Shown here piece after piece: positions 9,479-61,123 of a stretch of DNA of 64,000 bases. Position numbers and translations under genes: made by a program. The notes beneath the pieces were generated by a model. It was not told where the DNA came from, searched no databases, and saw only the letters and a list, made by a program, of their open reading frames with translations. The stretch is from Raillietiella orientalis (Eukaryota), in assembly GCA_036172245.1 (NCBI GenBank), contig JAYWIR010000036.1:2108001-2172000 (forward strand), written 5' to 3'. Positions within the stretch are counted from its first letter, which is position 1. Each line of letters begins with the position of its first letter.

Positions 9479-11506
9479 CCTGATAGCACCACTTTTAACT
9501 TATCACTGTCACCTATGAATTCTCGGTTATTATTCACTTGTCATCTGACCAGTACATGACAGAGAATTAAAAGAAAAAATGCATTTCGCCACTGTGAGCC
9601 CAATTCTTTCCTTATTTCTACTCGACTCCAGTGGTATTTCTTTTTTCTTTTTTTTTCCCCCCCCAAAAAAAAAGGGGGGTGGGGGGAAACGATCGTCCTG
9701 GTTACGCCAGTCACTACGATCGAAGGAGACGTGGTTTGAGAATGGGGGTGGAGATCAGAAGGAACCCACGGACCCCTGGCACACAGCGGATGCTACGACC
9801 GGCGCAGGCCAGCATGGAAGGCGCAGTGAGGGGGCGCACGCCGCCGCTCCGGGAAAGCCGGAAGCCCCAGCCTCCCCCGAAAATTCGGCCTACGTGGATC
9901 GGTGGACCAACGTTCCCGGTGGGAGACAGCGGGGGCGGAAGCACGACAGGGACGCCTCCCAGTCAGATGGGCGGCGAAACCAAACAGACCGGTCGCGTTT
10001 CGAGAGAAGAAGAAAAAAACAGGAAGCACGTTTTCAGACTTTGCGAGAGCCCGTGGTGGGAGCTCGAACCGACTCGCGGTGCATCCGAGAACTCTTCCCC
10101 TTGAATGGACCACCGAAAACACGAAGACAACTACAACAAGTGCACGTCTCCCTTCATGCCTTCATTTGCCTTCATTTGGTGATTGGTGCGGTGGCAGCGA
10201 GCTGGTCCACTGGTGATGGAGGTCTTTTCAAATAACCGCTCTTTCTTTCGTACTCTCGTGTTTACGTTGCTCTTGCATCCGAACAGAAGGCATCGCGAAG
10301 GCACCGCACACACAACGACGACAACAGATATTTTAAAAAAAATCTGTCTGAAATAATGTTGACTTCTCTAAATATGTGCAGGGAAACATTTCTCGTTCTC
10401 CAATGAAGGCAGCTTACCAACCAGTGTTTTTAAACAGATGCTAATGAATTTCAAAAACGTATTCCTAAAAGTGTTTGGTGCTTTTCGCATTTCTTTTTTA
10501 ACAAAACGTGCTTCAAGCAGAATTATTAGTTTCTTGTTTTCATTTTGGAAGTATGAACTGAAATTAACGAAGTTTGGTGAAACTAAAATTTTATTAACTT
10601 GCGAATCTTAATTTCTCTCCTAATTTTTTTCTCTGGTATACTATATTCTGAATCAAAAACCATAGCATGATGCATAATTGCCAATCACATCTGCTATCCT
10701 TGTACTACATCACGAATCCAAGACTGAGGTTTCAGCACCTTTTTGAGATTAATGAGGTTCCTTTAATAGTAACAGTACTGACCAAATATTGTTACTATTA
10801 ATGAAACTGATAAATCTTATCCCATCCTGGTGACTTCATCGAATGTAATCGATAAATCTTATTCCATCAGTTTGATTCGTGAGTGACAATCTCTTTGGAA
10901 TAGATAACAAGCATTTTCTAATAACCCATCTATTTTACTTATCAAGCCATTGTTGTGCACTGATTTCCCTTGCATTGATTGACTTATCAAAAATTAGAAA
11001 TCAACTTTATTTTGACCACTTTCATCACGAGCCTTTTATCATTCATGGATGTTTTTCGAATATTCTATCGGTAAATGTAAATCATGTTTCTTGATTTTTT
11101 TTTCTTTTTTTATAAACTGCAAATAAGTGCTTCGTTCTTTTTGCACTGTTTAGCTGACCAGTTATTTTGCACTGAGGTAAAATGCAATTTTAATTGACCT
11201 CTTGACTTTGCAACCCATCCTTTTATCTGCATAATTAAATCTCGGCTGTGCATTCGTTCCGAGGAATTCCGAAATTTTGTTGTTTATTGTGCTCCATCGC
11301 TGTGCGCATTTTCATTTCCAATCGTTTTCTAATTACAAAGAACCACGAAGGTGCTTTGGAGATGTTTTTATTTCCCAAAACGTTTATTGTGTAATTGCAG
11401 CGAAAGTCGATGCAAATGGCCACTATGGTTCACATATTGATGAATTTTGTCCCCGGGCGGTTTGGCTTTTAAAAATCGAGAACGTATTGATCTTCGGCGG
11501 TCGGAA

Positions 11507-12969
11507 ATGTTCAGGAATACGTTTCAAAGTGGATTTTTATCCGTTCTGTATAGCATCGGAAGCAAACCCCTCCAAATCTGGGATAAAAAGGTGAGCCGAA
11601 TGTGTGGGTTGTTGTGGATTCACATATTTCACATATGCTATTGGTTTACCATGATACCCGGATGCAGAAACTGTCACGCAGATCTCGAAACCGTTTTGAC
11701 CTGTGCATAGTTTTTCCACAAACATCTACTTTACTTGCGTGTCTGCTTTCACTTTTTGAAGATGAAGTCATGATCGTTTTGTTAGGCATGTGCATAGTCT
11801 TCTGTTATTCTGTTTGCTATCACGGATTTTCACTTTTCATCAGTGTTTCCGAAATGTAAGTTAACAGCAATTTTGTATGCAGGTAAATATTTGGGTTATG
11901 CCGTCGAATAACCAAAAGATGTAAATGCTGCCTGTTAAGCTGGGATCGTTTCCCCAAGATCAAAGATGCAAATATTAATCAAATGAGTCATTACATCTTT
12001 GTCAATTTCGTAAAGTTTCCTGGGCGGTTGCATCTTGTATTAAGCAGTTTGAAGGAATCATATCATTGAAACTTTGGAGTAAAGACATTATTGTGAATCA
12101 AATTTTCATGTCTGTTTTGATCAAAGACAGGAAAGTATTGAATATTGGAAGCATAACCACATAAAATATGAATCACCCTTTAGGCCCTTTGCTGTCAGAA
12201 TTATAAATCATTGCCTTTTTGTCATGAGATGTACGTAAAAAGTAGACAAATTCATTTCATATACTTCGTTAAGAGTTTGCTTTTTTGTTAATTAATTTCA
12301 TGCACTTATGAGTTAATTTTGTTTTTTGAAGGTGAGAAATGGACATATTAAAAGAATATCTGATGGTGACATTCAATCTTTGGTACTTGAAATTGTTGGA
12401 AGCAATGTTAGGTAAGCAACCTATAAATCTCAGATTGCTTGCTCATTTGTTATCATTTTGATAAGAATACATCATTGTTTTTCATGTTAAAGTACAACAT
12501 ATATCACATGCCCTGCTGACCCAAAGAAGACATTAGGAATAAAATTACCCTTTCTTGTAATGATAATTAAAAACATGAAGAAGTTTTTCACATTTGAAGT
12601 GCAGGTATGCACATTCATGTCTTAGCAAACAGCATGAATTAATGAATTTGCTTTTAGGTATTGGATGATAAAAACATAAGAAGGAGATTCAGAGCCAGTA
12701 ATTATCAGTCAACAACTAGAGTTAAACCTTTTATTTGCACCATGCCGATGCGATTAGATGAAGGCTGGAATCAGATACAGTTTAATCTGGCTGACTTTAC
12801 TAGAAGAGCATATGGAACCAATTATGTGGAAACATTGAGGGTTCAAATTCATGCAAACTGTAGAATACGTAGGGTGTACTTCTCTGATCGTCTTTATTCT
12901 GAGGACGAATTACCAGTTGAGTTTAAACTGTATCTTCCTGTAGCATCAACCTCAAAAATGAAAGTGTAA
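11507..12969 (+). CDS. CFAP20: Cilia- and flagella-associated protein 20 (BUG22); exons 11507-11590, 12332-12411, 12493-12604, 12658-12969; 195 aa
   Basis: [49 protein letters not shown]...|...[23 protein letters not shown]...|[44 protein letters not shown]... is near-identical to the highly conserved CFAP20. Canonical splice sites; 588 nt total. Confidence 0.97.
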
Positions 12970-15900
12970 TACATGATTCAATTGTTGGAACCCATGAAAT
13001 TGTTTTCATTTTGCCCAAACAGGATAAGTTTTTTCTTTACATCAAACAGTGATCTCGGAATTTGGGGCTGCAGTTGTGTGAATACGATAAGTAATGAAGG
13101 ATTACACAAAAAATAGGGTATGCACAGAACAGCAGCAATAATTTTTATGCTGTTGTTTATCAACATCTTTTGTAACAATGTTACCAGAGGTAAACATGTT
13201 CTTGAAAACATGTGCTTCCTGTGTTCTTGCTATTGGAAATATTTTCATGTGTCAATAAAGGACCCTCACATTTGCATTCAATGAGTTTATTACTTATTGA
13301 GCCAATGTAAGGGATGTTCTAAGCACCAAAGAGTAGCCACAGTTGGGCTTAATGTTTTGGGAACCTCATTTGTGCCTTGGTCTGGTATCAAATGAATAGA
13401 ACACATGCTAGCTAATGCTAAATGGCTATTCAGAGACCTACTGAAACTTCTGACTCTCGAACTGCTTAAGCTTGGGCTTCTGGAAAATTAGCAATTAAGA
13501 TGCTTTAACATCAGCCTCCAGTTTTTCCGGTTTGTCCTTGAAGCAATGCAGTGGATGAACTACACAGTGTGCCATCTGTTTATTTGGCAGACATGCTGTT
13601 ATTGACATAAAGAAGGATAACATGAAGAAACAGTGGCGACTGACATCTTCCATTGGTCCAAGCATCGCAGTGAAGCATCGTGATGTTTGCCCAAGCAACT
13701 TGTGCAGGGTCCGCGCTGCTTCCGAATCACCCCAAGCTCCCGCGGGGCAAATTCAAAGCGTCTGCACTTCAGGATGCTTAATTCTTGGTGAGGTTCAATC
13801 TTTTCGAGCTCCCAGAAAGCCCTTTTATTTCCTTCTTGTCTAAAGACCTGCCATTCCTGCCAAATTATGCTAGCAACATCTTTTGCTCCTGTAGGGTATG
13901 ATTACTTAGCCTTATGTGTGTTCATGCTACAAGGAGCCCCAACTGGGTGTTTTTTTTCTGCATGTGTTTAACGAATTTCCTTGTAGCTGTGGTGCTACAA
14001 AAATATTTTGCGAAATATTAAGTATCTACCCGGCTAAACTGTGCAGCGAGGGCATCGGTTGTTTGGAAGCAAGTTTTCATAAGCGAGGGGCTTCTTTCTA
14101 GCTAAGGCATCGGTCATATTAGTCATGCCAGGGGCGAATTCCGTTTACTGGGTGCATTTGCTTCTATGCATCATTTCTTTCACGCTCTTCGATTTCTAGA
14201 AATCTGCAGCGGCGTTGGGACTTCCAGTTTTCAGCACCCCCCATGCTCTTCCTCCACGCATGCAGCACCGCCTAATCCAGTTTTTCCAACATTCTTGAAG
14301 TTTCCATGATCTGCTAGGAGGATATGTACATATGTACATGCATGTATTTGAAATTAAGCATCCTAAAGATGTTCTTGGAGACAAGCAGTGCACCTAAAGA
14401 AAGTTAGTTTCATTATTAAAAAAAAAAAAAAAACTGTACAATACATGATCTAGAAGGAAACGCAGATACGGAAATTACTGCTTCCAAACAAATCAAAAGA
14501 AGGAAGTCCTTTAAAGAAAATTTACCCAAAGGAAATAAAATGATCATCAATTTGACATTTTGTTTGCAGAAATTCCCCGTTTCCAATTTTTCCAAAACTT
14601 ACATACTCATTTTTGTTTGCTTTCACAGCCTCTCGTTTATCAAGTATTTGTTCTTTTTTTTTCCTGTAGTGCTGCTGTTTGTACATGGGATTATTAACGA
14701 TCCATACTCTGATAAGAATGTGCATTATCGGGGACTGTAAATGGGATATTATCTGCACCCAAGGTCATCCATCATCTACGCTACAACCGGTTTCCTGCAC
14801 TGTGTAGCTAAAGACTATGCCTTCACTAATATAAAGTATGGTCTCATTACTTGGATGTAGTCTCAATTATCTGCCCCAGAGGTAATGGAATATGCACTAA
14901 TTATCATCCCTTTCTCACTGGAGATACTTTATTTCGCTGCCTAATTACAAACCGGAGTCCCCAGAGATTATCTGAAGGGCAAAGTTCTGCCTACTACTGT
15001 ATTAATTTTTCATATGCCGGTCCGGACGCTATCACACAATTATGCACCTGTGACAAAGGTCATCCGTCTGTGAATGCCAAATGCATCTATCCACAGATTG
15101 GAACATGAATGCATCGTGTCTGTGAAACGACTACTTTCACCCTTTCTCACTGGAGTGCCTTCAGCCACTCCTAAACTCAGGGTTTGAGAATGCATTACGG
15201 GTTTCGACCTTAGATGCCAACCTACCAGAGAGTACGTTTAGAGACGAGCGAAGTTGGTAAAACTGTTTGTCCCTCCCCGGTGGCTGCTCGGTCTGCCACC
15301 TCAACGAGGACATTTGCCAGCCAATTCTGCTTAGGTTTTCCGGGGAAAGGCGGCAACCCTTTCCGTCTTGGATTCTCCCGATTTATCCCTGACATATCAA
15401 TAAGTGGTTTCTAGGCAGGAAGAGTCCACTTTTGTACCGTACGCACGGACATGTCTCCTGAAATCCTAACAGTCAGAAAAACCTTAGCCCTAATAGAGAA
15501 GTGCACGAGTGCACTTATAGTCTTACGGTCTTTGTAAGCTCAGCGTTTTCTTTCTTCCTTTTCCTTTGAACACATTCCTGTGCTGGAGCAAAGATCCTGT
15601 TACTTGATGGAATAAACAACGGCAGCCCAACATGGTACGCCAGAATGAAAACAGGTATTAACACACTGAGGCATGGCTAATCACAAACGGGCAGCTTACT
15701 ATCATGGGTTTAGCAGTGGCCAGAGCGGCACTCTGCAACCGGACTTTCGTGCTTTTACTCTTGCAAGGCGTGAAAGGTTATTTCGTTCCCGTTGTTTTGT
15801 AATTATACAGCAAAACTGTACACAAAAAGTGATCTCATTACTCACTTTCAGCTACTAATTAAATTTAATCACATGTCATTAGACTTCGGATCTGGATACG

Positions 15901-16771
15901 ATCTACATGGATGGAATCTTAGGATTCCTATCTTCATGATCAAAAAGGTAAAGCAGACATGCGTGCTTCCGATCTGCTGATGCCATGACAGTTCATTCAT
16001 TTCACAACATTTTATTGATGTCAGAAGATCCCACTGATTGGGGCCATTGGAGCATTTTTTTTTTCTTTCCCGATATATTGAAACATATTAACGTCTAATA
16101 TTTACTATTTTTTAGCAAAAATTCACCCTGACCCGTAATTGGTCAACAAAACGATTCAGGTTGCAGGCGTCGAAGTGTAGCACCCTTGACTGCTGGCTGC
16201 ACTCGCAAACCTTCGCAAAGAGCTACACGATGGACTCTCTCCGTGCAGCAGTGGTTCGGCCCCTTCCTCTCGAGCCGCACGGCATGCGACCCCGAAACCA
16301 ACAAATCCAGTCTTCCCCTAACCTCGCGACGGTCTTCAGAAGTCGACGGCTGCATTTCACAAGGCACTAAGCGAGGAAGGTAATGGAAAAGTCCAGCCAA
16401 AGTCCAGAGACCCTGGACAAGACAATAAGAGGAAAGACAGTGAAGAAGTTTGGGGCTCCGTGCTCTTCATCCATCTCCATCGATGTCCTTAGAAGCCATT
16501 GGTCTCCTCATACGCATACACCAGCGGCTTGTACCACTACCGTCTTGCTGCCATACCTTCAAGATGAGTACACGTTGCGATGTGCAATCCGCACACCAGT
16601 CGCCAATGCGGGAATGGAGGCTGCCATTTTCCACCCTGTGCTGCACCTGTGGGTTGCCAAATCCGTCTCAGCACGCAGAACCCATTAAGCCATGTCCAGA
16701 CTCTGCCCTGGGTTTTCAAAGGACGCAGGATCTCTTCTTGGTCTTTCGGGTAAAGTGAAAGTGCAGAGCAA

Positions 16772-17388
<617 letters not shown>

Positions 17389-19879
17389 TGTCCCGTAGCT
17401 AAGCAAGAAAATCCCGACGTTCGGGACTCCCTGGTCGACGCGTCCACCCTTCCTCTTCTAAGACACCGCCATCGCTCCGGTGCTCTGGGACTCCCTTTGG
17501 AACGAGGACGAACCTCCCACCCACCTGCGAGGACAGCGGTCCAATGAATGCTCGCGTTTCAAGGTCGAGACTTTTCAGCAGCTGCTCCTGGGGTGCGGCC
17601 GAGGCAACAGCGCTCATCTCAGGGATACTGCAGCTGCAAACTCCCGAGACCTGCTCAGAGGGATGTTCACCTCTTCGGATCTGCCAGGTACCTCCTCGCC
17701 GGAGGCCTTCTACAGGCACCTTCGAGCCAGTGGAGATCTTCAGAACAGCAGGACCGTCCATGACCTCGGTCCAAGGGAGCAGCTCGCGGTCCCGACGGTC
17801 TCGGAAGGAGCAACGGCTTGACTCGACTCAGGAGGTGAAATGCATGGGAGCTTCGGGGCAACTGCGGGCGAACAATCTACGCAGCGGTGTACCCCACCTC
17901 TGGTCGCAACGTCCTCACTGAGGTGCATACGGGTGGCAGGGGTAGAGCCACCACGGCGGACCGACAGTCTCCGTTCGGCTTCAACCGGAGGTGAGTGCTG
18001 AACACCACGAGAGTCAACTTATGCTCTCGCCTGGTCGTCCTCCTCACAGGGACGCGTAGAGGGCGCTGAGCCCAACCTTTGAGTCACGAGATGGGGAGCC
18101 CATGCTCTCTCAAGGTGGGAGCAAGACTCGGGCGTACCAGGAGCCACCGGAAGGAGGCCCCTCCGGTGCTTCTTCGAGGTCGACAGAGGCCGCCTTCTCC
18201 TCCAAGTTCCCTTCGGCGACTGCCGCCAATGCGCGCTAAACGAGTGCACTCCAACGGAAGACGAAGACCTAGACCAGGGGTGGCTCCTCCTCCTCCTCCC
18301 AGTTTGAGTGCTTGCCGAACACGATGGGGACCTTCCGAGGAGAGCCCCGCGGGGCACAGAGAGGCTCAGCCTCTCACTTGACGACCTGGCTGGTATCACC
18401 TCGGTGCAGGGTCGCCGCTTGACCAACCGCCAGAGCAAGGGATCAAGGGCAAACAGGGTAAGCTCACGGGCGCAAGTCGCCGGTACCAGCCTGCGGCGAA
18501 TCGTGTCATCGCGACACCAACGGACACATCTTCGGGGGCATCGCGAGCAACCGAGGAAGCGGACGAGGACGCCGCTCTCCCTGAAGGGGACAGTGGCAGC
18601 CGACGACCGGCAGGGTGCGTTGCGAGCTGCGAATCAGTGGGAACGCGGAAACTTCTTGGCGGGAGGTCAGGGCGCCATCAACTGCTGACGCCGCGATCCC
18701 AGATCGCGCCAGAGAGGACAACGACGAAGAGAAGGACTCCTTGCAATCCCCTGGAATAAGGCTCCCCGTCTTCATCCACGTACAGCAACAGACACCTCAC
18801 CTGTCCACTCCCCGTTCCCATCCACATCCAGCATCCCCGCCCGCACTCCCTTCCACCTCCTCCGCATGCAACGCCTGCCTCCCTTGCCCCGGCGCCCCCG
18901 AACGTTCACCTTCTCGGGAAGCCCGTCGCGCCGCCCCGAGCCCACCTCTCCGACCGGAAGGAGACCGCGGCGGCGGGCACTTCCGATCGGCGCTTCCGCT
19001 TCCCGGGCGCCCTCGGCTGGGCGGCGAAGTCGCCAAGGGGCCCTCCGTCAAGCCCCGAGGGCGGCTGTCCACCGGGGGGTGACCGCCCCCGGCAGAAAAT
19101 GGCTCGGCTGCCCCCGACGCGGTTCGAAACGGAGCAGATGCCTCACCCAGTCCGACTCTACAGCGGCGCGCGCCACCGGGTATCGCCAGCGGGTCCACGG
19201 TGCGTGGACCGACTCCGCGCCGATCGGTCCCGTCCGCGCGACGCGCGTCTCCAGGAAGACCGAGGTGCGGTCTGCTTGGAGACTCAGTGCCACGAGAGCG
19301 GAGCACGCACGACTGCTCGCCACCGCCATCCCCCTGGGCCGCAGCAGAGCGAGGCCCATGGGGATGAGATGGCCATAGAAACGCAGCCCTCGAGGGCGCG
19401 GCCGACGCCGAGGCTCTTGCGGAAGAACCACCCTGTCCCTGCATCCTCGCTCTCATGAAAGTGCCGCTGGGGATGCCGCTGGCGAGCGACCGGGACGAGG
19501 AGCGCAGAGGACGGACAGCAAGGGGTCACCCTCCAGCCCCGGCGAGTGGGTCCTCCACGGTTGCTCCCCCTTTCCTTCGGGACTGGTGTCGACCGAGGGC
19601 CTCCTCTGTGGCAGCTGCGTGCGGCCTTTCGACGAATGGAGGTGCCGAAGGGGATCGTGGATGCAGTGCTCCTCGCGGCCCGCTCCGTGTGGGGGAGGGA
19701 AGGTCACGACCGGCCTCCCTGTCCGGGAGCGAATTCGCTCGGGAACCCCGCTGCCCCGGCTACACAGCGCGAGAACTCGCGGAGGGTCCTTCCGCCCGGG
19801 AATCCCCGAGGGAAGGAAAGGGGAGCGCCCGAGGAGTCCCGTGACCCTGGCGACGGGAGGCGTCGGAAGTTTAATGCCG

Positions 19880-20493
19880 GCGGGGTAGTGCAGGGTCGAG
19901 GGCCGCGAGGAAAGGGGGGAGCCGTGGGCTGTTTCGGCTGCAGGGCGACGAAGGATCGTCTGAGGCGCTGTTTCGCGCCTCCCTCGGGCCGTTCCCACTC
20001 TCCTTTTGGGCGGAAGCGCCTTTCTTCCTTCCGCAACGTGTCCCGATATCCAGGTCCGCTCTTCTTCTTGGGGCTCTGCGACTCCGTTGTCTTCCTTGAG
20101 GTCCGCTCGCGCCCCGGCCGAGTCCTGGGGGGAAGTGTCGGGTAGAGGGAGACAGTCGGGACGGCTGGTGGAAGAGGCGAGGACCTGCCGCCGGTCACGG
20201 AGGAGGGGAGGGGGAGGAGGGTTGGTGCCGAGCGTGCCCTCGCAGCGTCGCGAACTCCGCTGGAGTTCCACTTGGCAGGCCGCAGACGGCGCAGGGAGGC
20301 GCCGTCACTTTCCAAGGGGCCGGAGGAGGGAGCTATCCTTGGCCCGGTTTCTCTCCCAGAGTAAAGACACTCCGGAGCTCGAAGCATGCGGGGTAGTGCA
20401 TGGTCGAGGGCCGCGAGGAAAGGGGGGACCCGTGGGCTGTTTCGGCTGCAGGGCCACGAAGGATCTTTTGAGGCGCTATTTCGCGCCTCCCTC
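19880..20493 (+). repeat. Direct repeat pair of ~106 bp (19880-19985 and 20388-20493)
   Basis: GCGGGGTAGTGCA.GGTCGAGGGCCGCGAGGAAAGGGGGGA.CCGTGGGCTGTTTCGGCTGCAGGGC.ACGAAGGATC...TGAGGCGCT.TTTCGCGCCTCCCTC occurs twice, ~508 bp apart. Confidence 0.92.
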
Positions 20494-22436: not shown

Positions 22437-23084
22437 GTTGAATTCCACCAGTGCATGCAGACTGGCCTCGTGGGTGAACGGAGCAAGTAGGTCCGTTTTC
22501 CAACAACGAGAAAAAAGAAAAAGCAGCTTGATTCTAAGGCGGCTGAGTATTTTTGAGGAATTTCTCCAACAGACCCCTTGTGTGGAACCATGGTTTCCCC
22601 TGAGGGCACTGTTGGCTAGAGTCGACATATTGTGCGGCCCTTTTGTAGGGAAGAGATTTTGGCAGAAGCAGAAACGGAACTCAACAGACTAGACGCCGTA
22701 AGAGACCCTTCTGAAGTGGACAAGCTGCTCGACGCCTTCCTTTGGAAAGCAGAGGGCGCGCCTGTGCCACAGTCTGCCCTGGTGGCCCTGTTCCACATCG
22801 TATTGGCTTCGATGTGTGAGCTGAGGCACCTAGAGGCAGTTCGGAAACAAGCCGACGAAACATCTTCGGCCGGTGGTATGGATGAGGACGGTACACTTCC
22901 CACTACCATCGAAGACAAACCTACTCTGGCTGTACCTACCGAGAGGACGAGTGAGGTAGCTCAGCTCGACTCCTCAGACAAAACACTTAAGATCCTGAAG
23001 AAAGGCTTAAATTCAAAAAAGGTGACGTTCGCTGGCGATATCGTCAGTGCAAAAAATACCCCATCATACCCCATCATGCTCTAG
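22437..23084 (+). CDS. Candidate last two exons of an orphan gene (~22437-22486, 22649-23084)
   Basis: Donor AA|GTAGGT and acceptor TTTTGTAG|G join in phase to give ...CMQTGLVGERSK|EEILAEAETELNRLDAVRDPSEVDKLLDAFLWK...ALVALFHIVLASMCELRHLE...KKVTFAGD...*. The composition is helical and protein-like, unlike neighbouring GC-rich ORFs. Confidence 0.45.
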
Positions 23085-49772: not shown

Positions 49773-52700
49773 CTCATGCTCGGGTAGATGGGCAGATTTG
49801 ACACAAGTCCTCAAGGATTGGGCTAGGGCGCACGATGGGCTCGCAGAGGGCACAGCGGTGCGGCGCGCCACTCGGCCATGCTCGGGCGACACTGCGAACA
49901 CTACGGTTGCCAGAAGAGCTCGCATTTTATTTCCGTGTCCGCTTCTTTCGTCATCTCCTTGGGGATGTGTCGCATCGCAAGAGCTCGGGCACCCCCCAGA
50001 ATGATCCCCCCGCCTTGACGGCCGTGGCTGCTGACCTCGTGGTTTCAGCTTCAGGCAGAGGCAGCCACGGAAACATCAGGTTTTTCGTTTTGGTGAAGGA
50101 AAACAAAAAGAAGGAACAACAACAACAACAACAAAATTTGGTTGAGTTTCACGAACTCTATATTAATCGAGTACAAAATCGATTGGTTGAATCCTGGAGA
50201 GCTTGCTGTAAGTTGAGTTCCGAACCTCGGAAGGAATTGATTTGCATGCGGATAATTCCGAGAGGGTGGGAACACTGCGTTTCCGTCGCCTTCGCCATGT
50301 CCCAATGATGATGTCGGAACCCTCTTCCTTCTTCATCTGTCCATCCCCCACATATCATTAGTTTGGCTAATCCCAAAACCAGAGCGTGCTCCCCACTTCT
50401 GGACGCCGAAATCAAGCAAAGATTCATGTCCGAGCAGGCTTCATCCCCCCCCCCTCTCCGAAATGTTGGTAAATCAAGTGAGGAATTAGCCTTTTCCTTG
50501 GAAAGTATGTAGTGGACGCTAACAAAGTGCAGATGACCAATTCCCATTACACAGGAAGCAGACAATAATAATAATAATAATAAAGTCTTAATGAAGTAAG
50601 AAAAACAGTCGAGGTTTAAATGGCATTAGGATCAAATTGCTGGAGGAAAAAGCGGTAGACATGCTAAAGAAAGTAAGAAACAACGGATGTGTTACACACA
50701 AAAAAAAAACTGAATGCTGTAATTGCAGCAAAAATGAAATGTTAGAACTGAAATAGAAGACGGCTTGTCGATTGTGCTGGTGGATTGTTTGGGGTTAACA
50801 GTTTTCTATTGTATTACCAAGTGTTGAAGGTGTGGTTTGCCTGTTGATCCACTTGCGTTTTCCGTCTTTGCTCTCGTCTATCCTTGGAATCACCTTACCC
50901 GCGTTTTAAACGAACATTTCCGAGTTTTCTTACTCATAACGAACACCACGTATTCTGTCAGTCTGTTAGAAGAAAATCTTCGGCGACTCCGGGAGGTTCT
51001 TGCAAATCTGGCTCTTGCACACTTGCGCTGTTGTTGATTGCGACTTTTGAATGCCTTCGAATTCTTTGCATTCGTTCTGAATGAGAAAAAAAATAAAAAC
51101 GAGAATACGAAACCGGGTGATACGCTTACTACAAAATAAATTATACCGTCTTTTTTAATTAAAACTTCTTCTGCTCTTTAAATCACATCACCTAAAAAAA
51201 AATATCTTGAAAAGTTGCTCAAGTGTGAAAGTCGTTTGTACTTCTTAACCTCCCGGTCTGAAGGCACTTCTGCCTCCTCAGCAATCTTAGGTTCCAGAGG
51301 GTGGGTCTGAAGACAAACCGTTCAAGATCTGAGCGCCATGACCATTCCTTTAATTTTGCTGGAAGTGCGCTCATTTTTCACTTTTTGCGAAGCTACCGAG
51401 ATCTTATGAGCACGGGAAGTAACGAACTGTGGCTCATCTTGAGGGAGGGCTACCGTTCGGCCTTCCGCTGCTGTCGTGCATCCTCCGTTCCCTCCGGGAT
51501 GTGCGAGACGGTGGCACACTGTGCCACCATGTGTTAAAGAGACCTCCTGATCAGCCCTCCTTCGCGACGGTCGCACTGCGTCGAGGCGAAAGGAACCCCT
51601 GAAGGAAGAGCGAAACTCAAGAGTCAACAAGTTGTGTTGCCGGCGGAGTTCTGAAATTACGTATCGCCAAATCGATAGATTTGGCAACTGCAGAATTCAA
51701 AACGAAAGAAAGAAATACATCGAACGCAAATAGTCAGGGAACATCGCGCACAATGTTCGCGTGTAAGGTGAACCTGTGCACGCCGAGGGCGAACCGAGGT
51801 CAGCAAGTGAGCTAGTGACCTAGCGGCATCTCCTCCGATGCTGCTGCCGTCCCATTCAGGGCTTGGATTCCCCACGCCTTAGGCGCCGGCGATGAAGGTG
51901 GGGGGCGACCAACGCTTGCCGGGCGGCCACCCGCGCCGGATGGAAAGTCGGAAAGGGGAGGTTGACAGGTCCGGGGGGCGACCCGGAAGGGACCAGGTGT
52001 CGGCTGCGCTTCCGACAGAGCGGGCAGAGGCTTGCTGGCAGCAGGACCGAAGGCGGGACGGACCTCGGAGCTCCTGGCTTGGTGCTCCAGCCGGTCCTCC
52101 GCTTTCCCAACGGGAAGACGGGGGAATGGCGCGCGCTTCCAACTTCCTCCCGTCGGAGGGGTCCTCTCCGCGAGCGGTCGCCTCGCCACCCAAGGGTAAT
52201 AGCTCCCCAGGGAACGCAGCGACAAGAGGAGGATGCACGCTGGCTGTGCTAGGAGCATCCGCGGAACATTTCTCCAAGGACGAAAGTGACCGGAAAAAGA
52301 CCTTCCCCCTTTCGGGTCTTTTAGGAGCTCTGGTCCCATCCGAAGGAGAATGTGAGGGATGATCATCTTCCAGGAAGAAAGGGATGAGGGGGGCACCGCA
52401 GGCGGCCACCCTTTTGGGGTGGTTCAAATCGGGAGGGCGGGTGGCCGAAAGCGCCTGCGGGAAGGTCGATCTCCGAACTCGGCGGCGGCCCGCTGTTCCG
52501 GCGCCGAGAACTGGCGGTACGGAAGGCGCGTGCGCGTTCTCCCCTGAAGGTCTCCGCGGGTTGCGAAACGTCCCTGGCAAAGACTTCCTCCCCGTTGCCA
52601 AGGAAAACGATCGCCATGGCGACGTGATGGGCCCTCCGGGGGATCCCGCGATACGGCGAGAAGCCCTCCCCCTTTGAAGAGGGACGTCGGTGACAAACGG

Positions 52701-52910
52701 TCTTCCATCGTGCCGCTCTTTTCTTTGGTTCCCGTCCGCTCCACCGCGTAGGGACCGCCCGCCGTCCGGCTTTGGGAACCGCAGGCGTCGCCGCTGAAGA
52801 TGAAGAGCCACAGGAAACCCCAAGCGGCTGGGAGGAAACGCGCCCGGGCGCGCGCGCCGCCGCCGCGGGTGTCCTTTCGGTGCGCTTGTCACCGATCGCG
52901 CGCGCAGCAC

Positions 52911-53102
52911 CGCCACCATTTTGCGCTCCGTTCTGTTAAAATGGCGCGACATGGCCGGGGGCTCCTTTTCGCACGCGCGCGCCGGCGGATTCCGGTTACA
53001 GTGCCGCCGCCGCCATTTCACGTCCCATCGAAGAGATGGCGCGCGAGGTTGCCGGGGGGCGTTCTCGCGCGCTGCCGCCGCCAAGCCCCGACGCCATTTT
53101 GC
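52911..53102. promoter_or_regulatory. Cluster of YY1/Pleiohomeotic-type motifs in a CpG-dense segment
   Basis: AAAATGGCG (52938), ACATGGCC (~52949), CGCCATTT (53011), AGATGGCG (~53034) and CGCCATTTT (53092) lie within ~170 bp. Confidence 0.4.
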
Positions 53103-56100
53103 TTCCCCCTCCCTCCATCATCCCCAAGCGTTGGCGGTGCGTGCTGGTAGGGTATTCTCCGCGTGCCTTCGTCGCCAGGCGGGCGAGAGAGGGAAAAAAG
53201 AAAAACAAGTCAGCGAGTGACCTCCTGTGACGCGCTTCTCTGCAGGGAAACACCGTTGCACAGCTAAGGCGGCCATGTGACCCACCACGTCAAACGCTTG
53301 GCGTGTGCCTACGACCCGATGGGGAGGAGAAGAGGGAGGATGAAGGTCAACGCCGCTGCGGAGGCTTGCCGGAGGGAACGGGAACAACTCGGGAGAGGAC
53401 TGGGGACGGAAGAAGGATGGGGTGAAGGGTTAGGAGGAGAGGTGGGAAACGCCCGGCACGCTGCGTGCCACAGAGCAGGCAGGAATTCACGAGGTCGCGG
53501 GAACCGCTGGGATCCACTTCCGAGCAGGCACATCGCCTTCACCGAAATTCCTCCTGGCAGGATGCTCCCTGAGGCGAAGCACGAGGTTGCCCACCCTTCT
53601 TCCAGCCTGCCCCGTCTGTTGTAAACACATAGAATCAGAAAAGATGCCGCTCCCTCTGCGGCTCCAGGAGACGATCGAACTTAGCGACCCTCGACCTTAA
53701 ACCCCCCTCTCCCGACCTCGGGTCGGGGGAACCAAAAGTCTCTTTTGCGGCGACACTCGGCGGACGTCTGCAGTTACTCCGACCGCGGGATGATGGCGCT
53801 GCTGTGCCTCCCTCCGGAGCTCCTCCCAGTGGACTTCTCGAGGGCGCGACGCCTCCCCCCCTCTCTATTTTTCTCCTTTTTACCACCGCCCTTCGCTCTC
53901 CGCTCGCTGAGCAGAAGAGCGCCAAGCGTTTCAGGCGTGCTGCTCGTTGCGCAATGTCACTGGTGCTGCGCTGCAAGGAAACCGCCGGGCCCAGCGCGTG
54001 GATGGGCGGGCGGAGGTGGAGCGCTGGGGAGGAGACGAAGTCCGGCATCCCTCATCGCTACCCACGAGTGACCGATTCTGAGCTCCTGGGGGAAACCGGC
54101 GGTTGCGTGCGGGAATCATTCCTTCGCCGGAGTAGGAGTGCAGGAAGGCGCCCCCACAGGGAAGCCCCGCTTTCCTTCTGCAGCCTTCGCCTTTCCGAGG
54201 AAGGCCGCCGCCGGGCAGCTCCCTCGACGACCACGCGGACGTAGCAACGTCGTGCCTGCGAGTGGTTCGCCCGCGACCGGGGAATGACGGTGGTCCTCGA
54301 GCCTCCGCCCCGTCCTCCTCGCCCGGCTCCGGCGGCGGGAGGAAAAGACGAGGCGAACACGTATGCTCGAAGAACGCGGTGGTCCGCGGGGGTCCATTTT
54401 GCAGCTGACAGATCAGCCTGGAAAGCGACGTCTCCCACCCCATCTCGAGGGCGGTCGCCCGCTTTCGTGGGAAGCAGGGAAAACCGCCTGGGAGCGCGCG
54501 CCCTTTTTAGTAGTCGTCGACCTCTCCGTTCTGTTCCTCTGCCGCCCCTTCCTCACCGAGTCTTCCGAAGGCGCGTTGAGGCCTCGCACGAGACCCGCCG
54601 AAGCCCCGGCACCGGGACCAGGAAACCGACTGTCGTGGTTGGGTGGGTGGGCGCGCTTCCCTGTCACTGGCTCTGCTGCCCGCCGGCCCATCCGGGTTGG
54701 ACGGACGGACATCCGCCAACCAGCCGGAGGGGGGGGGGCGCCCGTACCTCGCGGACTGGCCGAGTGTCCCCTTCACGGAGCTCCTCCCTCCTACGACGCA
54801 GCCACGGAAAGGTGCAGGCAAGCAGGCGCTCCAAAGGCGACTTCCGGCTCCGTCTTCGAAGTCTGCGCAGGAACCGGGAAGCGCTGAGGGGGAGGGAGGG
54901 TAACCCACGTGCGCTCCGGCAGTTCACTTCCGGTGGAGGCAGCATCCACCGACGGGAAGATGCAAAAGGCACTCCTCGGCGCCATCTGGAGGCGTGCGCA
55001 AACACCGTACTGGCCAATACCAAGGGAACAACCACCCGGTGGTATGCCGCCATTATCGCATTGATGTGGGAGGGGGCCAGCGATTCCGAGACATTATGGC
55101 GTGCGGTCCCATGCTGTGGCCAGGGCAACTCAAGAGAGAGCGATGAACCTACCCTAAGGGCTTGAGACTCGAGGGGCGGGTGAAGGACGAAGCAAGCCAA
55201 GCGGGAACCCACGACTCAGGTCAAACAAGGCCTCAGGAACGAAGGCCGGCGTGCAGTCTTGGGCCAAGCTGCTGCTCTCCGGAAACAGACAGCTCCCTCG
55301 AATGGCTCGTCGGACGAATTCGGATGTTTTCACGCGGTGCTCTTTCCGAGTCTGCTCCACAGGTGGGTCCGCGGCGGCGGCACGGGGACACGAGAACCGA
55401 ATCGTGGCAGCCGAAGGGAAACGGCACGCAACGCTCCCGGACCCGGGGCACACGAAGGCGACCTGACGCACTTGAGAAAAAAGACACCTTGTCCTCCGGG
55501 AACTCATCCTGAAACCCTGCGTGAGACGATGGAAAGTAAGGAACGTGGGAAGGTGTGCAGAGAGAAGCTGGCTGGACCACGTGCTGCTTGTCTTCGGGAG
55601 AGGAGAGGGGAGGGGGGGGAGACATCCTGCCGTCCGCCGAAACTGCGCAAGAAGCTCGCGTCCAACGGACAGGCCGGGCGACGAGAATGGATAGCGAGTC
55701 CATGGAAACGGAACCCACCGGCAGCAGCTTGTGACAATGGTGGATGCGACCTCTTGAGGTGTTTCGGTATGCCCGCGCCTGGTGACCTTGTGGCACACAC
55801 GTCCGCGGACCTTTCGGCATCGCCCGACCCTTTGTTTCAAATTTCACCGCTCGCCTAGGAGTTGGCCGGATCCACCCCGGGTCAGGAGAAAAAATTGGAG
55901 CAGCTGACATTCCTTCCGCGAGATCAGGGGGACCTGGGCGGCTGCTGACCTTTACATGCGGGACCACTCCTCATTCGAAATCCCCAAAGTGCGGAGAAGG
56001 GGAAATGCAGGAGGAATGTGCAGGGCACGTGGGCACCTCCTACGTGTCGAATGGACCGCTGGATGCTGCGAGGCCCCTCACCAGTCGCAGTCGCGAACTC

Positions 56101-59100
56101 AGAAGCGTGTTCCTACGTGTACTCCATCACGGGGGCACAACGCCCGTGGCAGATCACCACTGGTAGGGTTGCGCGCCGCGAAAGCGATTAGGTCACCCAT
56201 CCAATCCGCGCACTCCGGAAACTCAGTATCGCCGCCGCCCGCTCCAGAAGCCATCAGGAGGAACTCGCGGCTTCTCGGGCGGATGCCAGAGCACCTCCAG
56301 ATGATTGGACCACGTGGAAGGAAGCGTGCACGAAAGCACGGGGCGTGCACGCACACACAAGCCAACACGACACATTGAACGATGCAAAGATAAAAGCAGC
56401 CGGTTAACCGGGCAAGTCTGGTTGCTAAGCAACTGGCATGTGGGAAGTGGCACTTTGTGCTTGCGCGACGGTGGCGCTGTATGCCCCCTTCTGTGCCTCG
56501 GACGATCCTGAAGTCACAAATCCTGACTTCTACCTTCCTACCCCCTCCCCCCCCCGGTCAGGGACATCGACGCAAGAAGTGAGAAAGGAACCCTTGACAC
56601 AAACACGACCAAAGGATTATCGGAATTATGGCACATGACCATGCGTGATAGGTAATGCCGAAGGCAAAAACGCTCTTCACGCGAAAGATTGATCGATCGA
56701 ATAGGATCTGCCCGCTGCGAATGTCTTGCAAACCACTGGTCAAACGCTCCCGAGGAGAATACGGGAAAACTGGACAAGCCAGATGAGGTCGTCTCCACGG
56801 AACAGCGTCTTCACGGCACGCACGTCGCAACGGCCACTGGCCCCAGAATGGGGCGAGAGAACACAACTTTCGGATGCCGCTACCGCACTGGAAGTACTGG
56901 CTAAAAATTCCTCTAGCACCTCGTGAACGTTACCAGAGTTGGTTCCATTTTTCATAAAAAGGGCTGACAATGTCAGTAAGCAGCAACATCGAGTGTTCCC
57001 GAAAACGGGATGAGCGACCCCCTCAGCTCTTGTAAGGGAAGCTTCGCTCTGGTGTTTACAGAGAAGACCTCCTGAACGTAACAAAGCACACAGAGGTAAC
57101 GATGTTTGAGTACGCGCCTACACTTTATTCCAGAACAAACCTCGGGGATTACCCGAGTTTCCACCAACGACAGAAGCCCCAGATAAAACAAAGCGCTCTT
57201 GCGCTTGGGGGAAGGAGCTAAGCTGCCCAAAGTGCTCACTGGACGAGTGTTAACCGGAAGCCACTCCAGCAATAAGCCGTCAGCAGCACTCCGCAATGAA
57301 GTAAAGGAGAAAACCTCGAGCTAATAACAAGGTCGGATTGCTTTGCGTCTCACTTCTTTGGAACATACTCGGTCCGGTGGATGCCACTCGGAAAGGTGCC
57401 CTGGGTGGAGCGGGCCGGAAAGCACGGGCGAAGAAGAAACCACCACAGTGTGTTGGATGCGAGCGCCCCTACCAAATCCCCGCTTCCTGCGGCGCCACGC
57501 GCAAAACGTGCCCACGACTGTTCCTCGTGGGGATCGCAGTGCAAGGCAAAACGGGAACTTTCAGAACCTTCGCTCGAAACGGCCGCTCGTACTTTCGCTA
57601 CACCTTGAACACTCCCAGAGACGTCGGATAGACACAGAACGCCGCACATCGCACCCGGTGACAACCACCCCATAATCTGGCCAATGTCTCTTCCACTCTC
57701 TCACGTTGCTGTTCACCTAGGCACATTCCATAAACGAAACACCCGAAGTCCCGTGAACAAGACGGATGATGGCCACTGACCGTCCATTAGACATTTGGCC
57801 TGCAGACCCAAATCGAATTGACAAAAAAGAGACCCTCGTCACCAGCGAGGAAGTGCCGTTGTAGCGTTCGCTTTCACCACGCCCAAAGAGACATTTGCGC
57901 AAATGAGCTGAACGTGGTAAATTCGGAAAAAAAAAAAAAACTCAGAAGAAGACCACAGAAAACAGAATCTATCTGCAAACACGCCCACTCTGAGATGCAC
58001 GATGCTATCGGGGGGGGGAGAAATAAAAAAATAAACACCTTCGAACGTGCTTAGAGCAAAGGTGGGATCGATGGAACGTTGGTTTGCGGCAATTGGACAA
58101 TTCTCCAGGCGAGAATGACCTCTGCGATCGAGTCACTGGAACACCGAACTCTCGAAAGCTCAGAGGAAAGAAAAAAAAAAAAAACAGATTGGACTCTTTC
58201 GTCAAAAAATTAATGGACACGGCTTTGCTCCTAACAGGCAAGTTAGTGAAGCGTGCAGCGGTCCAGCTGCTGCGGAAAAGAATCCCAACGAAAGTGCCAG
58301 CACGATGATGCACAGTACCCATCACGGAGACCTCAGGCGAACCTCGTGGGAGATGCCGAACCATGCATCACACCAGAGTCTGAAACATCAATCAAGACGA
58401 CAATTACGCAGCACGAAACAGTTAGCAGAGATGGGATGCAAGGAGTATCAACTGCAAGGAGGAAGAACACGCGCAGCTCCATTTCGCAGATAACACTCAC
58501 CAAAGATGATGGCACGACTGCTAATAAAATCGCTTTGGAAATGGAAAACCAACTTTAGAAATCTTGAAGGTGCACAAGAATTCACATTATAACAAATGCT
58601 TCCATAAAATACAAGGGCGAAAGGTAAATAATGGCTATTATGAGGTCAGCGCAGAGGGTAAGTAGAAAAAGAAGGGGGAGGGGGGAGTCACAAGAAAATT
58701 CCAAAAAAGGAAACGGCGCTCAAAGGTGAAATTGACACATCCACGCATACGTTCAACCACAGTTCCAACGAACCCTACAGAGCAATCATATCCCAATTGC
58801 ACTAATCTATCACCGTAAGATGCACCATGCATTCCAATGAACAATTACCTCAACGATCTGCTAAAGAGTAGCGATCCTTCACTCCGGCAACAGCCAGCAT
58901 GCTTTCCGATTCTGTGTAATCGCTGGTCTTATACGGCTGAAAGTAATAACCTGCACTTGTGCGATTCCATCCGCAGGACTGGGGCAACGCGGGAATTCAT
59001 GGGGGGGGGGGGGGGGGGAAGGAAATGCGGCGTCGGAGAAAGACCACGCCAAACATCTTTGAGAGCAGCCTCAAGGAGGGAAGAGCGCACGCAATGACCC

Positions 59101-61123
59101 GGAAGGTTGCCCCGTTACCATGGAGGCGCCGCATCGGATCCTTGGTGCTTCGGTCGCAGAGACCGTGCTGCTCCGCGGGTCTTTGCGACCAACGCTACGA
59201 GTCGAAACAGACGAACGGACGCGGGAAAGTCTACGGAAAACCGGCGGCGACGTCAACATCTTCTTCTTCCCCGAGGGCCGACCGGTTCGACTGCGTTCCC
59301 TACACAACGGACACCACCAATTTTGAAAGAAGCAAAAGCGCCAGACGAAGACCGGATGTAGTTCTACCGAGATGTGCCACCGAGCAGCCCAACCAGGTTT
59401 GGGGGGGGGGGGGAGGGCGTCCGCCGCTCCCTTCCGTACGGTGCAGTCTGACCTCGAGGGTGGCCGACGAACAAACGCTGCATTGAAACAACGAAAGAGC
59501 ACCTTTCGAAAAGGGCACATCACGCTGCCTTGGTAGTACTCACGGCACAGTTGGCACCATTGGTATTGTACCAGGGAAACCCTTGTCCGGAAACGCCCCT
59601 TTTTAACTCCCCCCTCCCCCCCAAACGGCACTGGAAAAACAAAAAGTCCAACCATTCAAGCTAAACTTTGGTCCAAGGAGGATGCGGAGGTTCGATTCGG
59701 TAAACCACAAGAGTCGATCCCTCAACAAGGATAGCTGAAATCATTCCACCTCGTACTGCAGCCGAACAGAAGAAAACAGAAAACTGACTGGAGAGACGGC
59801 AAATGACCGGAGAGGTTAAAGTCCACCAATCGGCTTACTCAAAATACTCAAACGGATGACCAAGGAATATGAAGAAGAAGAAAAAAACACAGAAAAGAAA
59901 GAAAGGGCGATTACCTCGATTCCAGAGCGCACCACCACTTCTGTCGCTTAAAAGAAGACTTCCTTCCCTACTGATACACAGACAACAGCGAAACGTCCAC
60001 CCATCCATCAAATATCACGTGATGGACGCTTCCTGCAGCGGCCGCTGCATCTTCGCCGACGTGCGCGCACCGCACACACCAACCGAACGCACTTTCTGCT
60101 GCACCGTTCGGACACCATCCTTAGGAGATAGCATAACCAACCTGCGTGAAGGAAAGGACACTTTCTATCTGCCGGGAAAACGGAATAGCTTTGTCGAGAG
60201 GGCCAAAGCACTCGGGAGAGAACCACTTTCCTCATACCACACACGGGGGGGGGGACCTCCGTTCTCTGCTGGGATCGAAACCGTCGCACTGGCTGCAGCC
60301 TCGACATTTGCCCGTACAAAAGTGTATTGTATAAGTGGATCTGCGACGAGTCCTTAACATTTTAAGGCTGAGCATTACGGATCGGAAACACGTGTACCGT
60401 TGGCAGCTGAAATGAAGAGCACATTTGCAACAAATGTGGCGGCTCCTTAAATAAAAAAACATACATCAGAATAAACATGGATTTGCAGTGTCAAGAACTA
60501 CGTGTAAACCTTCAGTTGCCATGGTTTTTTTTTTTTTTCTTTCCTCCCCTGATGGATTCCATCGAACCCGTGCCGTGCAAAGAACGGAAAACGAATGTTG
60601 CGCTGATTTGCACCAAGTGCGAATCAAAACCTTTTTCGATGATGAGGTAATCCGATTAAATGATTTCACACGATTATATTCTTCACAAAAACTGAATTTC
60701 CAAAAACCAAACTTACTTGAATCCAAGCAAAAACTGTCAGATTTTTATTCGAATCAGTTTGAAAAATGCAATTAATGAGTAGTACAGCATGGAACTGCCA
60801 TAAAAAAAAAACTTTTATATCAATCACCTAATCAAATCTCTTTTTATCAAAAATTATTAAATTTTAAAAAATAAGGTCAACATATCCTTTACGAACTATA
60901 AAAAAAAGGGCAAATGTAGCATTTTTCTGTAATTATATCATAGGAAATGCTGATGATATTTGTTTAAAAGAAATAAAACTATGGAATGATATACCTAAAT
61001 TGACGACATTTATGCACATGGTTTTCAATGGAACACATATATGTACAATTGATAAGAGTATGGTTCCTCAGATTTTTTGCCTTACACTGAATTATAAGTA
61101 TATGCACTATTTCAAAAGAAATT

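Follow-up and report, generated by a model that had tools for sequence, protein, structure and literature searches.

The stretch of DNA considered here (64,000 nucleotides of Raillietiella orientalis, assembly GCA_036172245.1, contig JAYWIR010000036.1, positions 2,108,001 to 2,172,000 of the forward strand), referred to below as the window, is a mosaic in which GC-rich and AT-rich DNA alternate at the scale of kilobases. From left to right it holds the N-terminal exons of NOL11, a gene with Tudor and MYND domains which we take to be TDRD1-like, CFAP20, a YjmC-like oxidoreductase gene of the Ldh_2 family, the coding exons of the mitochondrial malonyl-CoA:ACP transacylase MCAT, an exon of a DUF4604-family gene and the zinc-finger core exon of MEP-1 (Table 1). 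Scans of the window with Rfam and for tRNA genes gave no match. The Ldh_2 gene crosses from GC-rich to AT-rich DNA within a single transcription unit, and the third codon positions of its exons differ between the two sides of the crossing.

The window contains no N and has an overall GC content of 0.491, with an observed/expected ratio of CpG dinucleotides (CpG o/e) of 0.91. Across its 128 non-overlapping 500-bp bins, GC content runs from 0.204 to 0.712, with a standard deviation (SD) of 0.121 against a binomial expectation of 0.022 and a mean of 0.025 (largest value 0.029) in 100 simulations of an order-3 Markov model. The distribution is bimodal, and a mixture of two Gaussian components with means 0.396 and 0.610 and weights 0.56 and 0.44 was preferred by the Bayesian information criterion (-191.1) over one component (-168.0) or three (-180.0). 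The GC/AT mosaic is real and far beyond chance, and the strong compositional heterogeneity that a previous sequence-only reading of this DNA had asserted is upheld. A two-state hidden Markov model (HMM) applied to single bases divided the window into 35 segments separated by 34 state changes, with 33,574 bp in the AT-rich state (mean GC 0.376) and 30,426 bp in the GC-rich state (mean GC 0.617). Single segments measure 0.15-6.5 kb, and domains reach up to 13 kb when small AT islets inside them are ignored; uniform domains of 100 kb or more, as in vertebrate-type isochores, are not found in the window. The limits that the sequence-only reading gave for its blocks at 9580-10320, 17390-30390 and 31370-34150 fit those of the model; the block it placed at 37950-42850 ends about 2.3 kb early, and the one at 49170-60400 hides an AT-rich stretch (50071-51407).

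The arrangement of the two kinds of DNA follows that of the genes. Compact gene units with short introns, together with flanks of 1-2 kb, make up the AT-rich DNA. The large GC blocks correspond to both long introns of Ldh_2 and to three further stretches, namely the 10 kb that precede Ldh_2, 7 kb that lie upstream of the flank of MCAT and 9 kb on the downstream side of MEP-1. Two small GC blocks, which resemble CpG islands, adjoin the 5′ ends of the Tudor and DUF4604 genes on their upstream side.

A rough outside control was provided by metagenome loci that carry an arthropod MEP-1 relative: in all 19 of 6 kb or more, the SD of 500-bp GC content was 0.027-0.090, below that of the window. Three metagenome contigs with MEP-1 relatives at 70-86% identity (L024, of 20.5 kb, L025 and L026) have GC-rich (0.58-0.73), CpG-normal DNA around a less GC-rich MEP-1 exon. 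Similar, weaker mosaics are present in these arthropod-like genomes, whose contigs have no non-coding similarity to the window. A close relative of the window itself was not found, as the 51 metagenome loci with MEP-1 relatives match only the MEP-1 exon, with no match outside 61000-62400.

Table 1. Genes, compositional blocks and AT-rich elements in the window (positions counted from its first base; MITE, miniature inverted-repeat transposable element)
Feature	Positions	Strand	Evidence and composition
NOL11, N-terminal exons	218-635	-	Pfam NOL11_N at 432-635 (profile 1-50, E 2e-4) and 218-457 (profile 47-99, E 3e-4), both below curated cutoff
Tudor plus MYND gene	4568-9452	-	Tudor domains 4568-6823, zf-MYND 7605-7769 (Pfam)
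Small GC block	9674-10224		HMM; GC 0.60, CpG o/e 0.94; between divergent Tudor and CFAP20 genes; CpG-island-like
CFAP20	11507-12966	+	CFA20_dom at 11444-11707 (profile 1-30), 12491-12622 (profile 56-95) and 12658-12966 (profile 93-184)
AT-rich island	16713-17412		GC 0.28; (TG)44; right edge is the left border of the 17.4 kb GC domain
Largest GC domain	17413-30410		HMM; segments of GC 0.55-0.65 and CpG o/e 0.84-1.12; AT islets of 95-430 bp
YjmC-like oxidoreductase gene (Ldh_2 family), intact	27612-35171	+	Pfam Ldh_2; tblastn exon map; canonical splice sites
MITE-like AT-rich islet, 235 bp	28540-28774		20-nt inverted repeats 28540-28559 / 28755-28774, 90% complementary; in GC-rich Ldh_2 intron 1
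AT-rich element with terminal inverted repeats, 961 bp	30411-31371		GC 0.22; inside Ldh_2 intron 2; both edges razor-sharp
GC block, 3′ part of Ldh_2 intron 2	31372-34133		HMM; stops about 40 nt short of the next exon's acceptor
MCAT, coding exons	35290-36951	-	Acyl_transf_1 at 36322-36951; human MCAT chains 2c2n and 8csp match 35670-36158 and 35290-35712
GC domain upstream of MCAT	38253-45117		HMM; GC 0.61-0.63, CpG o/e 0.78-0.96; one AT islet, 43369-43701
DUF4604-family gene, exon	48833-49030	-	Pfam DUF4604, E 1.3e-5, just under curated cutoff
Small GC block upstream of DUF4604 gene	49316-50070		HMM; GC 0.57, CpG o/e 0.99; CpG-island-like
GC domain downstream of MEP-1	51408-60314		HMM; patchier after 57885; GC 0.46-0.60 from about 54.5 kb
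MEP-1, zinc-finger core exon	61127-62224	-	C2H2 matches; arthropod MEP-1 homologues at about 70% identity

The Ldh_2 gene across the GC-to-AT border

The first two exons of Ldh_2 lie in GC DNA. Exon A runs from the start codon at 27612 to about 27855, where it meets the donor GTAAGT, and exon B, at about 29690-29878, is preceded by a pyrimidine-rich acceptor and followed by the donor GTAGGT. The introns that follow each of them measure 1.8 and 4.3 kb and are also in GC DNA, in agreement with the long introns that had been reported for the GC blocks. The second one holds both the 961-bp AT-rich island and the GC block that ends at 34133, and from 34174 onwards five more exons are found in AT DNA, separated by candidate introns of about 45-97 nt (about 45-47, 67 and 97). 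This 3′ part accounts for the stretch 34.1-35.2 kb, which the sequence-only reading had not named. The third intron (34237-34283, about 46 nt) appears to use a GC-AG splice pair, with the putative donor GCAAGT. In the Tudor gene, the best candidate introns by splice consensus would be of 45, 50 and 55 nt; together with those of Ldh_2 they make short introns in AT DNA, as had been claimed, plausible.

The best homologues of the Ldh_2 product are metazoan YjmC-like proteins, at 50-59% identity, and a horizontal transfer of the gene was rejected on these grounds. Protein data assign the animal to Arthropoda and no further, and the homologues listed for Ldh_2 and MEP-1 do not bring it close to any annotated order. 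Downstream, Ldh_2 and the minus-strand MCAT gene are convergent, with about 0.1 kb between their stop codons (35169-35290), so that their 3′ untranslated regions (UTRs) must be very short or overlap. CpG depletion in the window is at its strongest here (o/e 0.09).

The composition of the exons changes together with that of the surrounding DNA. Exons A and B have a GC content at third codon positions (GC3) of 0.70 and 0.81 and a CpG o/e of 1.02 and 1.13, and the exon segments downstream of the border have GC3 values of 0.52, 0.45, 0.57, 0.37, 0.47 and 0.38, with CpG o/e down to 0.13. Expressed as counts, G or C occupies the third position in 88 of the 116 codons of exons A and B (0.76), in comparison with 79 of 175 in two Ldh_2 exons of the AT DNA (Fisher p = 1.7e-7). 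All 19 other exon segments that were scored give 865 of 2382 (0.36), with a range of 0.24-0.57; some of these segments are stop-to-stop open reading frames (ORFs) and may therefore contain a small amount of intron. When all 21 exon segments are taken together, GC3 tracks flanking GC content (Spearman 0.61, p = 0.003). The protein itself also differs along its length: the part encoded in the AT state is poor in Gly, Ala, Arg and Pro, with 99 of 100 homologues at or above its level, and the part encoded in the GC state is average in this respect (47 of 101 homologues at or above).

As seen in this one gene, over 116 codons, the GC state is a regional process that reaches the synonymous sites of embedded exons. 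Since these conserved exons show GC3 values of 0.70 and 0.81, the GC state cannot consist of inserted DNA only. Moreover, the border at 34134 falls within an intact gene and is therefore not an assembly join. The GC DNA belongs to the same animal genome as the AT DNA.

Contents and edges of the GC blocks

Apart from the two Ldh_2 exons, the GC blocks are non-coding, and they are single-copy within the window. In the largest domain, the sole Pfam domain is Ldh_2 and everything outside exons A and B is non-coding; the ORFs of the small block 9674-10224 have no Pfam match, no domain above cutoff was found in the block upstream of MCAT, and the domain downstream of MEP-1 has no Pfam domains and a complex, non-repetitive sequence. 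When the window's stop-to-stop ORFs of 90 aa or more, 277 in all, were scanned against Pfam, matches above cutoff fell in the known genes only, and no match was obtained in the 150 ORFs of 55-89 aa that were scanned out of the 194 such ORFs in GC blocks. Neither set contains a relic of a transposon protein (reverse transcriptase, integrase or transposase) at E <= 0.01 above the curated cutoff. Sub-threshold matches in or beside GC DNA are limited to Drf_FH1 (E 0.009), HIT (E 0.009) and zf-RVT (E 0.007), the last of them, below cutoff, being the only hint of a transposon protein.

The exons of the GC blocks had been described as mostly orphan, a description that finds no support, as the ORFs concerned are chance products of stop-poor DNA. 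They show no codon periodicity, with GC contents at the first (GC1), second (GC2) and third positions that are equal (0.61, 0.69 and 0.70 in the longest, of 496 aa), while in the real exons GC1 exceeds GC2 and GC3. Their lengths are those expected from an order-2 Markov null: the longest ORF averaged 434 aa (SD 78) over 300 simulations and attained or exceeded the observed 496 aa in 17% of them; GC blocks contain three ORFs of 400 aa or more, and three or more such ORFs arose in 9% of the simulations. The 496-aa ORF (19707-21194) had no match among 1.84 billion protein representatives, and no homologue was found for the 335-aa ORF at 43992-44996, the one with the zf-RVT hint. The idea that the GC blocks are coding DNA was rejected in view of the missing periodicity, the Markov-like lengths and the failure of both of these long ORFs to find homologues. 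For annotation, this means that the long ORFs of the GC blocks should not be called genes, and that real exons in GC DNA will have a codon usage very different from that of the rest of the same gene.

Repeats are scarce as well. A blastn comparison of the 64 kb with itself returned just 7 short repeat pairs, the longest of 112 bp at 93% identity and none of them at block ends, and tblastx added nothing; the same self-comparison revealed no direct repeats bounding the GC blocks in the manner of long terminal repeats (LTRs). Three dispersed pairs, 19880-19991 / 20388-20499 (112 bp, 93%), 32918-33016 / 37939-38033 (99 bp, 81%) and 1361-1429 / 3323-3393 (71 bp, 89%), are the only ones of note in the window and are possibly fragments of small mobile elements. 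Decayed satellites were also discarded as the origin of the GC blocks, because only trivial tandem repeats were detected, even at score 30.

Two further peculiarities of the GC DNA are of a local nature. Directly downstream of the minus-strand MEP-1, from 54500 to 60300, the plus strand has an excess of A over T, with an AT skew of +0.13 to +0.30 over about 6 kb and several internal A-runs; this could reflect transcription of the minus strand (a long 3′ UTR or read-through) or retroposed material. At the left edge of the small block next to the Tudor gene (9637-9690), homopolymer runs of T, C, A and G follow each other, and other long homopolymers in or beside GC DNA are C20 at 41930, C19 at 49632 and G18 at 59001.

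The borders of the blocks are of more than one kind. At 17413, 30411 and 31372, GC content steps between 10-36% and 60-80% within one 50-bp bin, and these three positions are the edges of two very AT-rich islands (16713-17412 and 30411-31371). The borders between GC DNA and gene units at 38253, 51408 and 60315 are softer, extending over 100-300 bp; that at 34134, some 40 nt short of the splice acceptor, is fairly sharp. Gene conversion would be expected to leave a gradual decay of GC over about one tract length at domain edges, and the picture here is mixed: the gene-unit borders soften and the GC3 of Ldh_2 tails off over about 400 bp, the step at 34134 is steeper than these, and the AT islands end abruptly. 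The unusual sharpness that had been attributed to the borders is thus a property of the edges of the two AT-rich islands, and the sharpest borders are not regime boundaries.

From sequence features, both islands look like members of a family of AT-rich non-autonomous DNA elements. They have a 31-nt right-end motif in common (with a copy at 17358-17388; two matches, none expected by chance), and the ends of the island at 30.4 kb form inverted repeats of about 36 nt that match at 28 of 36 positions, with a local score of 35 where the largest of 200 shuffles reached 23. The left end of the island at 16713-17412 gives a weak match (score 21, largest null value 28), no clear target-site duplication could be seen by eye at the 30.4 kb island, and an alignment of both islands over their whole length was uninformative, only their ends being alike. 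Their dinucleotide ratios are 1.17 for TA and 1.32 for AC/GT, TA standing at 0.64 in genic AT DNA and at 0.40 in GC DNA. Both islands are full of TA, TG and ATAG microsatellites. They are most likely insertions, with inverted ends demonstrated for the 30.4 kb island only.

Three compositional states and CpG loss in gene bodies

When GC content and CpG o/e are considered together, the 500-bp bins fall into three classes. AT-rich bins with CpG o/e < 0.5 (28 of the 128) have a mean CpG o/e of 0.29 and a mean TpG/CpA o/e of 1.41; in AT-rich bins with CpG o/e >= 0.5 (41), the means are 0.87 and 1.14, and in GC-rich bins with CpG o/e >= 0.5 (59), they are 0.97 and 1.00. No GC-rich bin has a CpG o/e < 0.5, so that this loss affects 28 of 69 AT bins and none of 59 GC bins (Fisher p = 1.5e-9); with 300-bp bins, again none of the 105 at GC >= 0.5 was CpG-poor. 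Within the AT bins, CpG o/e is anticorrelated with TpG/CpA o/e (Spearman -0.74). CpG loss is therefore confined to a part of the AT state, and GC content can be separated from CpG status. The two-state system postulated in the sequence-only reading is contradicted by the 41 of 69 AT-rich bins with CpG o/e >= 0.5, and as there are three states, methylation alone does not define the AT state.

The CpG-poor bins lie mostly on conserved gene bodies, those at 2501, 13001-13501 and 14501 being without an identified gene. Over the bodies of NOL11, the Tudor gene, the 3′ parts of CFAP20, Ldh_2 and MCAT, and the DUF4604 and MEP-1 genes, CpG o/e is 0.07-0.5 with an excess of TpG/CpA, which confirms that these gene bodies sit in AT-rich, CpG-sparse DNA. 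NOL11, which continues to the left beyond the window, is AT-rich, its CpG o/e being 0.27-0.39; the Tudor gene has GC3 values of 0.31-0.38 and CpG o/e of 0.13-0.60; the AT-rich surroundings of the DUF4604 exon (47.5-49.0 kb) show CpG o/e of 0.07-0.39, and the MEP-1 core exon is AT-rich, with GC3 0.38 and CpG o/e 0.28. The 5′ ends are spared. In CFAP20, the first exon is AT-rich with a normal CpG o/e of 0.79, and the 3′ exons have values of 0.00 and 0.48. The MCAT exons give, from 3′ to 5′, 0.22, 0.40 and 0.81, so that depletion is limited to the 3′ part. The sequence-only reading had placed only this part in AT DNA; the entire MCAT coding sequence is found there. The AT-rich, CpG-normal bins correspond to gene 5′ ends, flanks and AT-rich inserts. 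Three other AT-rich stretches (650-4500, 13500-16700 and 45100-47500) have CpG o/e of 0.45-1.2 and contain no Pfam-recognisable exon among their ORFs of 35 aa or more; they may be fast-evolving genes, UTRs or plain spacer.

The footprint of gene-body methylation is well established in other invertebrates. CpG-poor and TpG/CpA-rich gene bodies such as those of the window are what germline methylation of this kind would be expected to leave, judging from base composition.

Origin of the GC state

A tentative explanation, and the one that we favour, is that the GC state may be caused by GC-biased gene conversion confined to unmethylated non-genic DNA, a proposal made by analogy with other animals. 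According to it, the bodies of the conserved and probably broadly expressed genes, which are AT-rich (GC3 about 0.36), have lost CpG to TpG/CpA through presumed germline methylation, and the 5′ ends and near flanks of genes, AT-rich as well, have kept their CpG and are presumably unmethylated. Long introns and intergenic DNA farther from the gene units have been driven to 55-70% GC, at a CpG o/e of about 1, by a regional GC-favouring process that also reaches synonymous sites in the exons they enclose. By analogy with honeybee and dog, meiotic recombination would be concentrated in unmethylated non-genic DNA and excluded from methylated gene units. The alternation of two chromatin or recombination regimes at gene scale, as put forward in the sequence-only reading, retains its basis in the confinement of CpG depletion to gene bodies and in the GC3 of the embedded exons; it has to be amended in that there are three states and that the sharpest borders are those of the AT islands. 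As for the strength required, the equilibrium formula of the honeybee paper (PMC4406589) indicates, by our own arithmetic and with an assumed AT mutation bias of 2, that a population-scaled bias of about 1.3 would give about 65% GC.

Several observations weigh against gene conversion as the cause. The 41 AT-rich bins of 69 that are not CpG-depleted imply that lack of methylation is insufficient for GC enrichment. The 961-bp island, at GC 0.22, and several AT islets keep razor-sharp edges inside GC domains, so that either these islands are very young or the GC-favouring process is not uniform now. Typical conversion tracts would not predict a step as sharp as the one at 34134, which a splice acceptor follows within about 40 nt, and a strand-symmetric process would not produce an AT skew of up to +0.30 over 6 kb (54.5-60.3 kb). 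Finally, the evidence from exons comes from one gene and its 116 codons.

Part of what is proposed here has precedents. In the honeybee (Apis mellifera), the crossover rate of low-CpG, germline-methylated genes is 29% of that of high-CpG genes, and GC content correlates with crossover rate in coding DNA, introns and intergenic DNA alike; the bias of gene conversion is very strong (parameter B about 5.7), and the genome has 34% GC and a CpG o/e of about 1.67 (PMC4406589). As described there, the honeybee, whose GC content is bimodal, resembles the window in that CpG-depleted conserved genes lie in AT-rich DNA, GC-rich DNA keeps its CpG and GC3 follows regional GC; the link proposed is also the same, namely that methylation lowers recombination and thereby weakens GC-biased conversion. 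In contrast, the window switches state at a scale of 0.5-13 kb, even inside one gene. It also differs in its non-coding DNA of 62-70% GC at a CpG o/e of about 1 and in its GC-rich long introns, and recombination, measured in the honeybee, is proposed here from composition.

In the dog, which lacks PRDM9, recombination is drawn to unmethylated, CpG-rich DNA, and new CpG islands, most of them at a distance from genes, arise through GC-biased conversion (PMC4350167). The window is similar in that its GC- and CpG-rich blocks lie in presumably unmethylated DNA, many of them away from promoters, and in that their borders would follow the methylation state. The small promoter-side blocks 9674-10224 and 49316-50070 look like CpG islands. 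The GC peaks of the dog are islands of about 1 kb in a globally methylated, CpG-poor genome; blocks in the window, on the other hand, reach 13 kb and cover nearly half of it, in an arthropod genome that would be mosaic-methylated.

Invertebrate methylation is reportedly mosaic, or fractional, and targeted to transcription units, as Tweedie et al. in 1997 and Suzuki et al. in 2007 are said to have described. The window agrees with such a pattern, as its CpG-depleted domains are gene bodies that alternate with CpG-normal DNA at the kilobase scale and have spared 5′ ends. Classical mosaic methylation concerns CpG only, in contrast to the difference of 25 points in GC content that is layered on top here. 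Alternating GC-rich and AT-rich compartments are also known from the isochores of vertebrates, of 100 kb or larger, and from some fungi, whose AT-isochores, produced by repeat-induced point mutation, have sharp borders and are repeat-rich and gene-poor. The window shares the alternation with both, and sharp borders with the fungal case; unlike in fungi, its AT blocks hold the conserved genes, and it is the GC blocks that are gene-poor and, within the window, single-copy. A keyword search of the open-access literature found no description of a kilobase-scale mosaic in an arthropod with non-coding DNA of 62-70% GC, which is weak evidence that it is undescribed. The ingredients, then, are known, namely mosaic gene-body methylation, GC-biased gene conversion and a GC3 that tracks regional GC. 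What is unusual is the combination of scale and amplitude: switches at the kilobase scale, 62-70% GC in non-coding DNA beside genes with GC3 of about 0.36, long introns that are GC-rich and a change of state inside one gene.

A stronger form of the proposal, which we regard as possible and more doubtful, is that GC-biased conversion has become a runaway process resolved at the level of genes. Recombination would then be so confined to unmethylated non-genic DNA that introns and spacers reach 62-70% GC, methylated units remain at a GC3 of about 36%, and the switch takes place within a single gene, whose 5′ exons would be carried along at their synonymous sites.

It is rather unlikely that the GC blocks are instead old inserted DNA, unrecognisable by now (decayed GC-rich mobile elements or other expansions), which would have bloated the introns and spacers of a compact AT-rich genome and would be GC-rich because its source was. 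Such an origin would suit the long introns (1.8 and 4.3 kb), which are GC-rich, and the short ones (about 45-97 nt), which are AT-rich, as well as the fact that some borders fall within tens of bases of splice sites or gene ends; the CpG-normal, AT-rich flanks near genes resemble retained original spacer, the AT skew of up to +0.30 over 6 kb and its internal A-runs fit retroposed material, and the AT islets and the element with terminal inverted repeats show that the region accepts insertions. However, insertion cannot give the embedded Ldh_2 exons their GC3 of 0.70 and 0.81 right up to canonical splice sites. Moreover, none of the 277 + 150 ORFs contains a transposon protein domain, and about 30 kb of GC DNA are nearly devoid of internal similarity, the longest repeat being of 112 bp and LTR-like direct repeats being absent.

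Less probable still is a regional mutation bias independent of recombination, in which active gene units marked by trimethylation of histone H3 lysine 36 (H3K36me3) and 5-methylcytosine (5mC) and DNA that is silent, or differently replicated or repaired, would have different substitution spectra and hence different GC equilibria. Consistent with it, the state covers all classes of sites, synonymous ones included, and follows the boundaries of gene units with no smooth gradient, and CpG decay is one chromatin-linked mutational process that already differs between the states. Within the window, this reading is indistinguishable from gene conversion. On the other side, no mutational regime is known to us in animals that would take neutral DNA to 62-70% GC, although no search was made for one. 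Measured mutation spectra are also AT-biased, as the honeybee paper states for the honeybee (PMC4406589).

Finally, a chimeric assembly, in which the GC blocks would derive from a contaminant or from wrong joins, is hardly credible: the abrupt steps in composition and the odd junction of homopolymer runs at 9637-9690 might suggest it, but there are 34 state changes in 64 kb with no N, both states are covered by a single intact metazoan gene whose exons are in order and whose splice sites are canonical, the 31-nt end motif is common to AT islands inside a GC domain and at its edge, and the GC blocks have neither bacterial-style gene density nor Pfam domains in the ORFs scanned.

Returning to GC-biased conversion, its consequences would go beyond this locus. 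If the GC state marks unmethylated DNA that is permissive for recombination, composition alone would provide a meiotic map of kilobase resolution in an arthropod without a genetic map. Such a map would make it possible to test, in a natural setting, whether methylation of gene bodies protects genes against recombination and the mutational load that comes with it. The runaway form of the process, if true, would make of this DNA the sharpest known natural map of where meiotic repair acts, and where it does not, in an invertebrate.

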